Positions 1,948-14,102 of a DNA stretch of 64,000 nt are shown piece after piece. A model generated the notes under the pieces. It saw only the letters and a program-made list of their open reading frames with translations, made no database searches and had not been told where the DNA came from. The position numbers were made by a program, and so were the translations under genes. Numbering within the stretch: position 1 is the first letter of the stretch; the number at the start of each line of letters is the position of its first letter. The DNA is from a phage. The stretch lies in the sequence record PV467748.1, one strand, 5' to 3'.

Positions 1948-3930
1948 ATGTCTTTATTATCACCGGGCATTGAGCTCAAAGAAACGTCCGTACAGAGTAC
2001 TGTCGTTCGTAACGCAACGGGTCGTGCAGCGCTGGTTGGTAAATTCCAGTGGGGCCCTGCTTTCCAGGTAACTCAAATTACTAACGAAGTTGAACTGGTG
2101 GATTTGTTTGGAGGTCCTAACAACGAAGTGGCAGATTATTTTATGTCTGGTATGAACTTCCTCCAATATGGTAACGACCTTCGTACTGTTCGTGTTGTTA
2201 ACCGTGAATTCGCTAAAAACGCATCTCCTGTTGCAGGCAATATCGAAACCACTATTACTACGGCTGGTTCTAACTATGCAGTAGGCGATAAAATTAATAT
2301 CAAGCACAACCAAACTGTTGTTGAATCTGAAGGTCGTGTGACTTCTGTAGATACGGATGGTAAAATTCTTTCCGTGTTTATCCCATCAGCAAAAATTATT
2401 GCTTATGCACGTTCTTTAAACCAGTATCCTACCCTGGGCCCGGCTTGGACGGCTGAAGTTACTTCCGCTTCTTCTGGTGTTTCCGGTACTATTACCGTAG
2501 GTAAAATTGTTACGGATTCAGGTATTCTTTTAACTGAAGCAGAGAACAGTGAAGAAGCTATTACTTCCCTGGAATTCCAAGCATCTCTTAAGAAATTTGC
2601 TATGCCAGGCGTAGTTGCTCTTTATCCAGGCGAAATTGGTTCCACCTTAGAAGTAGAAATCGTTTCCAAAGCCGCTTATGATGTTGGTTCTTCTAAAATG
2701 CTGGATATTTATCCGGGCGGTGGTTCTCGTGCTTCTATTGCCAAGGCGGTATTTAATTACGGGCCACAAACAGATGACCAATACGCGATTATTGTTCGTC
2801 GTGATGGCGCTATCGTAGAATCTGTCGTACTTTCTACCAAAGAAGGTGAAAAAGACGTTTACGGTAATAACATTTATCTTGACGACTATTTCGCTAAAGG
2901 TACTTCTAACTATATTTTTGCTACCTCTTTGAACTGGCCTAAAGGCTTCAGCGGTATCATTAATCTGATGGGTGGTGTATCTGCTAACGATCAGGTTACT
3001 GCGAGTGATTTGATGCAGGGTTGGGATTTGTTCGCCGACCGTGAAGCCCTCCATATTAACCTTTTGATTGCCGGGGCCGTTGCCGGTGAAGGTGATGAAG
3101 TTGCTTCTACCGTCCAGAAACACGTTGTTAGTATTGCTGATGAACGTCAGGATTGCTTGGCATTTATTTCTCCTCCTAAAGGACTGTTGGTTAACGTTCC
3201 ATTGACTCGTGCAGTAGATAATCTTATCGACTGGCGTACCGGTGCAGGTACTTTCGATACCAACAACATGAACATTAGCACCACTTATGCTGCTATTGAC
3301 GGTAACTATAAATATCAGTATGACAAATATAATGACGTAAACCGTTGGGTGCCTCTGGCAGCTGATATGGCTGGTTTGTGTGCGCGTACAGATGATGTTT
3401 CTCAGCCTTGGATGTCTCCGGCCGGTTATAACCGTGGTCAGATTCTTAACGTTTTGAAATTGGCAATTGAACCCCGTCAAGCTCAACGCGACCGCATGTA
3501 CCAAGAAGCTATTAACCCGGTTGTTGGTTTTGCTGGTGGCGATGGTTTCGTATTGTTTGGTGATAAGACTGCAACTAAAGTTCCATCTCCGATGGACCAT
3601 ATTAACGTTCGCCGTCTGTTCAATATGCTTAAGAAAAATATCGGTGATGCCTCTAAATATAAACTGTTTGAATTGAACGATAACTTCACTCGTTCAAGCT
3701 TCCGTATGGAAGTTTCTCAGTACTTAGATGGTATTAAGGCACTTGGTGGGATTTATGAAGGACGTGTGGTTTGTGATACTACAGTGAACACCCCTGCGGT
3801 TATAGACCGTAATGAGTTTATTGCTAATATCTACGTTAAACCTTCTCGTTCCATTAACTACATCACGTTGAACTTCGTTGCAACGAGCACTGGTGCTGAT
3901 TTTGATGAATTGATTGGACCTTTAGTATAA
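1948..3930 (+). CDS. 18: contractile tail sheath protein
   Basis: 660 aa; N-terminus and length match T4 gp18; synteny. Confidence 0.95.
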   Translation: MSLLSPGIELKETSVQSTVVRNATGRAALVGKFQWGPAFQVTQITNEVELVDLFGGPNNEVADYFMSGMNFLQYGNDLRTVRVVNREFAKNASPVAGNIETTITTAGSNYAVGDKINIKHNQTVVESEGRVTSVDTDGKILSVFIPSAKIIAYARSLNQYPTLGPAWTAEVTSASSGVSGTITVGKIVTDSGILLTEAENSEEAITSLEFQASLKKFAMPGVVALYPGEIGSTLEVEIVSKAAYDVGSSKMLDIYPGGGSRASIAKAVFNYGPQTDDQYAIIVRRDGAIVESVVLSTKEGEKDVYGNNIYLDDYFAKGTSNYIFATSLNWPKGFSGIINLMGGVSANDQVTASDLMQGWDLFADREALHINLLIAGAVAGEGDEVASTVQKHVVSIADERQDCLAFISPPKGLLVNVPLTRAVDNLIDWRTGAGTFDTNNMNISTTYAAIDGNYKYQYDKYNDVNRWVPLAADMAGLCARTDDVSQPWMSPAGYNRGQILNVLKLAIEPRQAQRDRMYQEAINPVVGFAGGDGFVLFGDKTATKVPSPMDHINVRRLFNMLKKNIGDASKYKLFELNDNFTRSSFRMEVSQYLDGIKALGGIYEGRVVCDTTVNTPAVIDRNEFIANIYVKPSRSINYITLNFVATSTGADFDELIGPLV

Positions 3931-4055
3931 TCTATTATCCCAGGCTGTAATATAAAGAACCTAAAACCATTATACCATGAGTTTGGTTACAGCGTACATC
4001 ACGTAGAATTGCGCCTGGGATTGATTAACTATCAGGAATATGATTTATCAACTGT

Positions 4056-4063
4056 TATAAATA
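4056..4063 (+). promoter_or_regulatory. late promoter TATAAATA upstream of gene 19
   Basis: Exact TATAAATA. Confidence 0.55.
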
Positions 4064-4115
4064 AATTAATCAGAATGTTCCTGGTGGGTCCAGGAACTGA
4101 CTTATGAGGCATCCC

Positions 4116-4607
4116 ATGGAACTTACCGATATCACTAGGGCTTTTGAATCAGGTGACTTTGCACGCCCTAACCTTTTCGAAGTGGAAATTCCATTTCTTG
4201 GTAAAAACTTTAGCTTTAAATGTAAAGCAGCACCTATGCCGGCAGGCATTGTAGAAAAAGTACCGGTTGGCTACATGAACCGTAAAATTAACGTAGCTGG
4301 TGACCGTACGTTTGATGATTGGACAATTACCATTTATAACGATGATGCACATGACACTCGTCAAGCCATTGTTGATTGGCAGAATCTCTGTCATGGTATG
4401 ACCAATGAAATTACCGGTGCAGCACCTGCAGAATATAAGAAACAAGCAGTAGTTCGCCAGTTCCATCGTGACGGCAAGACTGTGACCAAAGAAGTTACAA
4501 TTTACGGCTTATGGCCTACTAACGTTGGTGAAGTCCAGATGGATTGGGATTCGAACAACGAAGTTGAAACGTTTGAAAGTACGTTCGCTATCGATTGGTG
4601 GGAATGA
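4116..4607 (+). CDS. 19: tail tube protein
   Basis: Start moved to internal Met (MELTDITRAFESGDFARPNLF) giving 163 aa as in T4 gp19; high similarity. Confidence 0.9.
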   Translation: MELTDITRAFESGDFARPNLFEVEIPFLGKNFSFKCKAAPMPAGIVEKVPVGYMNRKINVAGDRTFDDWTITIYNDDAHDTRQAIVDWQNLCHGMTNEITGAAPAEYKKQAVVRQFHRDGKTVTKEVTIYGLWPTNVGEVQMDWDSNNEVETFESTFAIDWWE

Positions 4608-4608
4608 G

Positions 4609-4616
4609 TATAAATA
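4609..4616 (+). promoter_or_regulatory. late promoter TATAAATA upstream of gene 20
   Basis: Exact TATAAATA, followed by a GGAGCTTCGGCTCC tetraloop hairpin at 4629-4642. Confidence 0.55.
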
Positions 4617-4664
4617 GAATTATCAAGGAGCTTCGGCTCCTTATCCCATTCATCGGAGACTCTA

Positions 4665-13988: not shown

Positions 13989-14102
13989 AAATCACCATAA
14001 TAAATATAATTAAATAGAAGAGCTAGTAGTCTTCTGTCACCAAGCCAAATGGTTTAACGGAAGGACCTAGACCCATTATATCACACCTAAATTTAAAGCA
14101 TA

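Follow-up and report, generated by a model that had tools for sequence, protein, structure and literature searches.

The spacer between genes 18 (tail sheath) and 19 (tail tube) of a T4-type phage holds a long-range inverted repeat, a perfect hairpin and a late promoter, which raises the question whether these structures form a regulatory device of the tail-tube transcript or belong to the ordinary makeup of this gene junction. The analysed DNA (64,000 nucleotides, PV467748.1; hereafter the window) was determined to be from a Dhakavirus, a JS98-like T4-type phage, and the 1.3 kb around the spacer share 95–98% identity with Dhakavirus genomes (JS98, JS10, IME08, fDHCT2 and others). Gene 18 was located on the plus strand at 1948-3930, with its stop codon TAA at 3928-3930, from the list of open reading frames; the 95–98% identical DNA is annotated as tail sheath in Dhakavirus records. 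Gene 19 (4116-4607, plus strand, 163 aa) is 100% identical to Dhakavirus gp19 and was assigned by the T4 gp19 annotation. It starts with the ATG at 4116; at 4104 there is a further in-frame ATG, in place of which many relatives have AAG. The Shine-Dalgarno sequence (SD) of the gene, GAGG, is at 4106-4109 of the plus strand.

The spacer itself (3931-4115) is 185 nt long. The corresponding spacers were 116 nt in T4, 102–127 nt in most of its close relatives and 24–96 nt in distant T4-like phages, and because they are mostly shorter, the region had been called extended correctly. By sequence comparison, the spacer represents the Dhakavirus form of the gene 18/19 junction that is standard in T4 and closely related phages, where the gene 18 stop is followed by a first stem-loop (SL1), an A+T-rich linker, a second stem-loop (SL2), the late promoter, SD and gene 19. 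The T4 region (NC_000866, 100516-100631) has the same flanking genes, two stem-loops, A+T-rich linker, TATAAATA and SD. Its spacer consists of the hairpin GGCCUGU-UUCG-GCAGGCC, ATATAAATA, the linker, the hairpin CCCUAGG...AUAGGG, ATATAAATA and SD, and the same pair of modules was observed in the other close relatives of T4 that were examined; two hairpin-promoter modules are the usual state of this spacer in T4 and the phages close to it. In contrast to T4, in which a late promoter stands directly 3' of each hairpin, the window has one intact promoter, placed 5' of SL2, and an 85-nt branched domain replaces the 19-nt UUCG hairpin of T4. The Dhakavirus layout, in which the promoter has shifted to a site upstream of the hairpin, is probably a case of the ordinary T4-like combination of hairpin and late promoter rather than a new regulatory device.

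SL2 was determined at 4077-4097 of the plus strand as GUUCCUGG, loop UGGGU and CCAGGAAC, with a folding energy of -13.4 kcal/mol. The arms GTTCCTGG (4077-4084) and CCAGGAAC (4090-4097) are perfectly complementary over 8 bp, 5 of them G-C; the pairing reported in the preliminary description was thus real, but its loop is TGGGT (5 nt) and not TGGG. A perfect 8-bp hairpin with a loop of 3–8 nt occurred in 2.5% of 2000 dinucleotide shuffles of the spacer, and the isolated SL2 had a folding z of -2.9. In an alignment of 17 Dhakavirus spacers (A1; 16 distinct rows), all 16 stem positions were invariant. In contrast to the stem, the 5-nt loop is the most variable spot of the spacer and exists in four forms, TGGGT, TGTGT, TGTGG and ACACA. 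The last form is carried by Salmonella phage ABTNLS3 (ACACA instead of TGTGT), in which the 21-nt element is the exact reverse complement of the common form. Since the stem is invariant and the loop is hypervariable or, in ABTNLS3, inverted, the stem seems to matter, and the sequence of the loop and the orientation do not.

The conservation of SL2 across genera was studied with an alignment of 13 sequences from five lineages (A2), comprising the window, three other Dhakaviruses, one Tegunavirus (L032), three members of the CC31/PG7 lineage (L024, L026, L037) and the five members of the L018-L022 group, which includes Citrobacter phage Moon (L021). At the position of SL2, 93.1% of the cells were paired compared with 78.1% in shuffles, and registers slid along the alignment all paired 57% of the cells or fewer. 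Both sides had changed at 4 of the 8 pairs (17 cells), giving a covariation score that none of 500 shuffles reached; a comparison of L024 with CC31 also showed a U-A pair changed to C-G. CTGG at the top of the 5' arm is common to the A2 sequences. The Tegunavirus row is off register by one column in A2, and when aligned by hand it has 13 pairs, three of which are G.U. The G.U pairs in the Tegunavirus, Moon-type and Marfa helices fit plus-strand RNA and not DNA or the minus strand. It had been proposed that a lack of conserved pairing in relatives would speak against the structures of this spacer; for SL2 this objection fails, because the paired positions do not vary in Dhakavirus and show covariation between genera. 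The comparative evidence demonstrates that SL2 is a conserved hairpin of the plus-strand RNA and under selection. Its homologues stand right beside the proximal TATAAATA in T4, in the CC31/PG7 lineage, in Moon with its relatives and in further lineages. SL2 is not essential, because it was lost in Bp7, vB_EcoM_005 and IME540, where the similarity to the window spacer ends after 4065. Bp7-type Dhakaviruses have no SL2 at all. In vB_EcoM_005, an ORF cassette that brings a hairpin and a late promoter of its own has replaced everything from the promoter to SD, and in Bp7 an annotated hypothetical-protein ORF between genes 18 and 19 stands in its place.

The late promoter of gene 19, TATAAATA at 4056-4063 of the plus strand, has the exact T4-type consensus and is invariant in the 17 Dhakavirus sequences. 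The octamer lies 52 nt upstream of the gene 19 ATG and ends 13 nt 5' of the SL2 stem; together with the absence of a -35 element and the late virion gene downstream, it has the sequence features of a T4-type late promoter. The T4 late octamer is placed at -13 to -6 from the transcription start (PMC1524935), and the start of gene 19 transcription is predicted near A4069, about 6 nt downstream of the octamer. Promoters of this type require gp55, gp33 and gp45 for initiation. Counted from this predicted start, SL2 extends from about +9 to +29 and SD from +38 to +41.

The reason for the unusual order of promoter and hairpin was found in the alignment of the last 88 nt before gene 19 across genera (A3), in which the T4 counterpart of SL2 is homologous to that of the window by position and partly by sequence. 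The window promoter (TATAAATAAATTAATC) was aligned with the A+T-rich non-promoter linker of L012 (ATTAATAAATTAATC) and L007, and TGACTTATGAGG of the window with the proximal TATAAATA of the same two relatives. The promoter of Dhakavirus now lies 5' of SL2 because the proximal TATAAATA is absent, TGACTTATGAGG being there instead, and the linker holds a perfect TATAAATA. The octamer is located at -60, ahead of the hairpin, in Dhakavirus, Tegunavirus (fHe-Yen9-01, TG1) and Gaprivervirus VR20, and the proximal promoter was lost independently in the T4-like metagenomic contig L039. A gp19 search of viral contigs resulted in 79 loci across the T4 superfamily (from the best 80 of roughly 400). Among the gp19 loci listed, the spacers of which were all folded, the last hairpin before gene 19 usually ends 0–2 nt before the late promoter, which is TATAAATA or, in the Aeh1 and KVP40 types, CTAAATA. 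When the loci were reduced to 60 non-redundant junctions and a late-promoter motif could be recognised, the best hairpin ended 0–2 nt before this motif in most cases, and most of the hairpins abutting the promoter had z values below -2.

The description of SL2 as a leader hairpin is accordingly correct for the window, where it lies 3' of the promoter, but this arrangement is lineage-specific, as the homologue is immediately upstream of the proximal promoter in T4 and most genera. Because A3 shows promoter turnover, the leader position of SL2 appears to be a by-product of where the promoter was placed. The conserved role of SL2 is more likely tied to the RNA that comes from gene 18 than to a leader function specific to gene 19, since its homologue precedes the promoter in most genera. 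The initial interpretation of the two structures is supported in part. The hairpin after gene 18 is kept in nearly all T4-like phages sampled and the late promoter moves to either side of it; it can be argued from this that the hairpin serves the upstream message.

The opposite reading, in which the hairpin controls gene 19 from within its leader by gating translation or by sensing, alone or by switching with upstream partners, is very unlikely. SL2 does lie between an intact late promoter and SD, as had been noted initially, and in the fold of a longer RNA CAGGAAUAU (4033-4041) pairs with AUGUUCCUG (4075-4083) in competition with SL2. However, this partner is in the most variable block of the spacer, and most Dhakaviruses carry variants (TTCTTTAGG and TTCTCTCAG) that weaken or abolish it; both a switch of 4033-4041 with 4075-4083 and sequestration of SD were rejected, as the partner block is not conserved. 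SD at 4106-4109 and the AUG are outside SL2 and essentially unpaired; since SD is left free, SL2 seems not to gate translation. The location of the homologous hairpin upstream of the gene 19 promoter in most genera is also against leader-specific control. No Rfam family was matched: the scan of 3600-4500 at E <= 10 returned only three chance-level snoRNA matches with 15–18 bits, compared with gathering scores of 47–100.

Ribosome-binding sites sequestered by structures are familiar from T4 genes e, soc and I-TevI. The hairpins of T4 genes e, I-TevI and segB resemble the window in having a late promoter, a hairpin and SD within about 60 nt, and they interact with late promoters in a way that would favour leader control here as well (PMC3014915, PMC2988022). 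In these genes SD is inside the stem and the late promoter is in the 5' arm, so that transcription from it removes that arm (PMC3014915, PMC2988022). In contrast, SD of the window is 8 nt 3' of the SL2 stem and the promoter is upstream of the whole hairpin, before both arms and not within the 5' one, which places SL2 outside the e/I-TevI type. The order promoter, hairpin, SD was found once more in the window at the 19/20 junction, with TATAAATA at 4609-4616, the hairpin AAGGAGC-UUCG-GCUCCUU at 4625-4642 and then SD; in T4 the hairpins of the 19/20 junction stand before the promoter. The late promoters of the window other than those of the 18/19 and 19/20 junctions have no leader hairpin.

The second structure, SL1, is closed by the long-range repeat. 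The arms ATCCCAGGC and GCCTGGGAT are 9 nt long, 100% complementary and separated by 67 nt; the 3' arm had been placed correctly at 4013-4021, but the 5' arm is at 3937-3945 instead of 3936-3944. A perfect inverted repeat of at least 9 bp anywhere in the spacer occurred in 8% of 2000 dinucleotide shuffles, and since shuffles reach the same that often, the repeat alone is only borderline. The 100-nt stretch closed by the repeat folds to -26.3 kcal/mol, which is below all 200 shuffles, with z = -3.27 on the plus strand compared with z = -2.45 on the minus strand. The outer helix is predicted by MFE and centroid folds to be extended by the pairing of GUAAU (3947-3951, plus strand), which is invariant in the genus, with AUUGC (4008-4012). 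It encloses the inner hairpin AACC..AAACCAU / AUG.GUUUGGUU (3958-3988, plus strand) with the apical loop UAUACC (3971-3976), and a small side hairpin is also present in the fold. A late-promoter-like octamer with one mismatch, TATAAAGA, is located inside the domain (3951-3958, plus strand); the corresponding first structure of VR20 and Tegunavirus phages contains a perfect TATAAATA.

The substitutions within Dhakavirus fit a plus-strand RNA helix. The 5' arm of the outer helix was invariant in the 16 distinct rows except for C3945T in IME341, where C-G becomes U.G with 4013 and the pairing is kept. In the 3' arm, GCCUGGGAU, A4020G in 5 of the 16 distinct rows converts U-A to U.G at 3938/4020, and the replacement of T4021 by G or C breaks only the terminal pair with A3937. 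With three more one-sided changes inside the domain, 5 of the 5 remaining variable pairs of SL1 stay standard by G.U or G-C changes. No compensatory double change of the long-range repeat was detected within Dhakavirus, where the shuffle control is powerless at 97% identity. The support for SL1 and the long-range repeat is weaker than that for SL2.

The proposed comparison with relatives gave a divided result for the long-range repeat: it is kept in the genus with wobble-compatible changes, but the exact 9-bp pairing is not kept outside it. The SL1 domain (3937-4021) corresponds to the first hairpin after gene 18 and replaces the short SL1 of other genera; its core is common only to the lineages with long spacers, which measure 185 nt in the window, 180 nt in Klebsiella phage Marfa and 204 nt in VR20, and L015 has it too. 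Marfa retains the inner hairpin with arms of another sequence, two of the pairs being G.U, and its domain is closed by CCUAC/GUAGG. The homologous domain of VR20 is closed by GAAUUAAUCA/UGGUUGAUUC. Judged from these comparisons, the exact 9-bp pairing is genus-specific and the long-range closure recurs in other lineages. Related phages have a short first hairpin with a stem similar to the repeat arms (GGCGCCTAGG/CCTAGGCGCC in L013), and the simplest reading is that the SL1 domain is the ancestral first hairpin, which would have acquired an insert in its loop.

Such an origin could also mean that the extra approximately 85 nt are what is left of a cassette that entered this ancestral loop and is now decaying. 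They would then be a DNA-level relic without RNA function, and recombination or gene conversion would maintain the palindromes. The restriction of the core module to the long-spacer lineages, the borderline statistics of the 9-bp repeat and the exact flip of the hairpin in ABTNLS3, a DNA-level event, are consistent with this possibility. ORFs of PHROG 5104 were inserted repeatedly in the spacer, at two sites in Dhakavirus and in other genera too, and cassettes of stem-loop and promoter are known recombination substrates in T4-like phages (PMC4122927). Nevertheless, a relic without RNA function is unlikely, as the SL1 domain folds better than 200 of 200 shuffles, its internal substitutions all keep plus-strand pairing, the pairing persists in Marfa and VR20 despite differing arm sequences, and SL2 covaries across genera. 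Unlike a repeated mobile element, it was found only once in each genome of 51 records, and the window has no second copy of its arms; for the same reason, with no further paired copies in the window, a MITE-like element bounded by the 9-bp arms was rejected. A duplication of the gene 18 3' end through the direct repeat TACATCACGT.GAA (16 of 19 matches) was considered but not retained, because the segment aligns with CCGTAGGA of Marfa and belongs to the shared module. The PeSL/PmSL cassettes (Arbiol 2010, PMC2839356; Comeau 2014, PMC4122927) are similar in combining a stem-loop and promoter with SD and start codon and in the insertions and replacements nearby. In PeSL, a sigma-70-type early promoter (or a MotA middle promoter in PmSL) follows the stem-loop, and many copies are present, mainly in hyperplastic regions (PMC4122927). 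The window differs in having a late TATAAATA in a single-copy arrangement within a conserved structural block, with the promoter preceding the hairpin, and was not assigned to these cassettes.

As plus-strand RNA elements, both structures most likely serve mRNA stability or 3'-end formation in the ordinary intercistronic manner, a reading that we consider probable. Late transcripts would read through from gene 18, with SL1 and SL2 acting there as intercistronic stability elements that block 3'-to-5' exonucleases or cause weak termination, resulting in stable gene 18 mRNA ends. The late promoter at 4056-4063 would then renew transcription for gene 19, and on the transcript starting from about 4069, SL2 may protect the 5' end to some degree. 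A precedent of an intercistronic hairpin blocking 3' exonucleases is the REP element that separates malE and malF in E. coli, and stable C(UUCG)G hairpins were reportedly described in T4 intercistronic regions by Tuerk et al. in 1988. Like these, the spacer has a stable stem-loop right after an abundant cistron of a polycistronic late transcript. UUCG tetraloops were found in several relatives and at the 19/20 junction of the window, whereas the UGGGU loop of SL2 is no special tetraloop. A 5'-terminal stabilising stem-loop is said to have been described in the ompA 5' UTR by Emory, Bouvet and Belasco in 1992, and stabilisation of this kind classically depends on a hairpin that is only a few nucleotides away from the 5' end. 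SL2 is comparable as a stable hairpin near the predicted 5' end, but about 8 unpaired nt precede it, if transcription starts at 4069 as inferred, compared with approximately 0–4 nt in the classical stabilisers; the hairpin of the 19/20 junction follows after only about 3 nt.

A stronger version of 3'-end formation, in which the structures are true terminators or attenuators that halt late transcription between genes 18 and 19 at a fixed frequency and tune the sheath:tube ratio in this way, has a low probability. G+C-rich stems directly after a highly expressed gene would suit such a role, and the stem of SL2 is of the intrinsic-terminator kind (8 bp, 5 G-C, 5-nt loop). Hairpins followed by a U/A-rich run were found in distant relatives, e.g. 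GGCCGAAAGGCCUUUAAU in L035 and GGGGCUUCGGCCCCUUAU in L038, and the all-A/U TATAAATA abutting the hairpin in most genera may give a weak RNA-DNA hybrid. However, a U-tract is absent 3' of either structure on the plus strand; the 0–2 nt position after the SL2 stem, where an intrinsic terminator has its U-tract, is taken by UGACUUAUGAGG. The stretch 3600-4500 contains no terminator-like site on the plus strand, and the SL2 palindrome was flagged on the minus strand only. Since TransTerm calls no 18-to-19 terminator in RB69, RB49 and RB43, termination at this junction is probably weak, if any. With the promoter upstream of SL2, efficient termination at SL2 would defeat the expression of gene 19. 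Moreover, gp18 and gp19 are required in equal copy number, which argues against tuning of their ratio.

In the T4 GenBank and RefSeq records, regulatory features are absent at the gene 18/19 locus, and nothing specific was found in the literature on mapped T4 gene 18/19 transcripts, late-region antisense promoters or a hairpin abutting a late promoter. The gene 18/19 hairpin element of Dhakavirus is thus unannotated so far and of a familiar kind, and the current understanding of T4 late gene expression is unchanged by these findings. The gene 19 start at 4116 and the late promoter of gene 19 are useful to annotators of JS98-like therapeutic phages, and the two structured elements should not be annotated as ORFs. 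A 32-codon TTG ORF annotated in CLB_P2 (4009-4107 of the window) was rejected, because a stop interrupts it in the majority form of the variant block and AAG replaces the ATG at 4104 in many of the relatives.

The apical part of SL1 contains a promoter-like motif on the minus strand (3969-3994), consisting of TATAAT (the reverse complement of 3969-3974), TGG (3975-3977) and a degenerate MotA-box-like CGCTGTA (3988-3994). The CGCTGTA box is 13 nt upstream of TATAAT, the same spacing as in a consensus-like middle promoter at 14075 of the window. Across four lineages (Dhakavirus, Marfa, VR20 with its relative L016, and L015), the blocks CATTATAC, TG two bases on and AGC are invariant and have fixed spacing, and the sequence between them has diverged throughout. 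When read on the minus strand, CATTATAC corresponds to the -10 element TATAAT and AGC to GCT 16 nt upstream, which is the spacing of MotA-dependent middle promoters. As MotA-type box, the window has CGCTGTA and Marfa TGCTAAA, whereas VR20 and L015 both have TGCTTTT. A T4 middle promoter has the -10 element TAtaaT and a MotA box, (a/t)(a/t)(a/t)TGCTTtA, 12 +/- 1 bp upstream (PMC2988021); compared with this consensus, the window has a perfect -10 TATAAT, a spacing of 13 and a degenerate box.

The late block of T4 at 75–110 kb contains no known middle promoter (PMC2988021, Table 1). It is doubtful that the apical part of SL1 carries a functional minus-strand promoter, which would be an extended -10 promoter in the window and a near-consensus MotA-dependent middle promoter in VR20 and L015, and from which the 3' end of gene 18 would be transcribed in antisense ahead of the late phase. 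If such a promoter were active, its RNA could be an anti-late antisense RNA, or it could serve as the primer of an R-loop origin like those of the oriF/oriG type, in which a middle promoter is combined with an A+T-rich unwinding region. A 317-aa ORF antisense to gene 18 (2647-3600) was considered as a target of this promoter and rejected, being broken in JS98 and absent in T4 and the other lineages examined. As it is broken or absent in relatives and long antisense ORFs are common in codon-permuted gene 18 (the longest having a mean of 171 codons), its presence is attributed to chance.

The gene 18/19 spacer was also observed to be a hotspot for inserted homing-endonuclease-like genes; this hotspot and the minus-strand motif are better leads for experiments than the hairpin finding with which the analysis began. 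Related ORFs of 194–227 aa are located between genes 18 and 19 in QL01, vB_EcoM_005, L008, L015 and L034, and those of QL01 and vB_EcoM_005 match PHROG 5104. Their endonuclease nature is putative, since the Pfam search of the inserted ORFs resulted only in sub-threshold matches to HNH_4 (L034) and SegE GIY-YIG. The gene 18/19 spacers of L023 and L027 are as long as those bearing ORFs. In QL01, the last approximately 100 nt of gene 18 are synonymously recoded.

The spacer between gene 18 (tail sheath) and gene 19 (tail tube) was found to be a recurrent insertion site among the compared T4-like loci. Additional ORFs were detected between the two genes in QL01 (L001, 640-1296), vB_EcoM_005 (L002, 814-1497) and Bp7 (L093, 1182-1853), and the further cases are L008, L015, L023, L027 and L034. 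The 18/19 spacers of L023 and L027 are as long as those of the other cases. The related spacer ORFs, 194-227 aa long, have the GAYQLDH...NLE.I.WE.N motif in common. The inserted ORFs of QL01 and vB_EcoM_005 matched PHROG 5104, a family of unknown function, and the sole Pfam match among the inserted ORFs was a sub-threshold one to HNH_4 in L034. These ORFs look like putative free-standing homing endonucleases.

Two distinct insertion sites were identified inside Dhakavirus. In QL01, the ORF is located immediately 3' of the gene 18 stop codon, and in Bp7 and vB_EcoM_005 the insertion site is the late promoter, the second hairpin of the spacer being replaced by the insert. The last ~100 nt of QL01 gene 18 (L001, about 510-611), which adjoin the inserted ORF, show synonymous recoding. 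Identity to the window is 18-25 of 30 bases in this part compared with 28-30 of 30 elsewhere, with no change in the 23 C-terminal residues. Endonuclease target-site immunity or co-conversion would be expected to leave such a pattern. QL01 and vB_EcoM_005 also carry a 193-aa ORF between genes 19 and 20 (2060-2641 in both L001 and L002), which is missing from the window. Its match to the SegE GIY-YIG domain was weak and sub-threshold, 17.6 bits with a cut-off of 25, and the ORF is probably a second free-standing endonuclease.

The promoter-first order recurs at the gene 19/20 junction (window 4609-4664). The promoter TATAAATA (4609-4616) lies just 3' of the gene 19 stop codon. Next come a hairpin with a UUCG tetraloop, AAGGAGC-UUCG-GCUCCUU (4625-4642), beginning at approximately +4 of the predicted transcript, and then the SD and gene 20. 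In contrast, the hairpins at the T4 19/20 junction are 5' of the promoter. In the T4-like metagenomic contig L039 (1389-1500), the proximal gene 19 late promoter is gone, with CCCATATTACTACAGAGG in place of GGGATATAAATACTACAGAGG of T4, and this loss is an independent event. Since only the distal late promoter, at -80, is retained, the second hairpin of L039 is located in the leader as in the window.

In Salmonella phage ABTNLS3 (L083, 297-317), all 21 nt of the hairpin element are inverted relative to the common Dhakavirus form, of which the sequence is the exact reverse complement, with the loop ACACA instead of TGTGT. The palindrome was presumably flipped by template switching or by recombination at the inverted repeat. 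In CLB_P2 (L094), a spurious 32-codon 'hypothetical protein' is annotated across the promoter and the hairpin. The annotated gene 19 starts of AnYang (L087) and IME08 (L088) are 12 nt too early, at a non-conserved ATG equivalent to that at window position 4104.

A candidate minus-strand promoter was detected within the structured upstream domain of the spacer (window 3969-3994), with equivalents in L029, L030, L014, L016 and L015. The TATAAT of the motif is perfect and, in the window and in Klebsiella phage Marfa, is closely preceded by TGG; a GCT lies 16 nt upstream (window CGCTGTA, Marfa TGCTAAA, VR20 and L015 TGCTTTT). The spacing is that of a consensus-like middle promoter at window position 14075. 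Transcription from this candidate would be antisense to gene 18.

A 317-aa ORF on the minus strand within gene 18 (window 2647-3600) was rejected as a chance ORF. It is broken in JS98 and missing from T4 and the other lineages examined. When the codons of gene 18 were permuted, the longest antisense ORF averaged 171 codons, and 317 was reached in 1% of the permutations. Gene 18 of ESCO10 (L091) is mislabelled as 'deoxynucleoside monophosphate kinase'.
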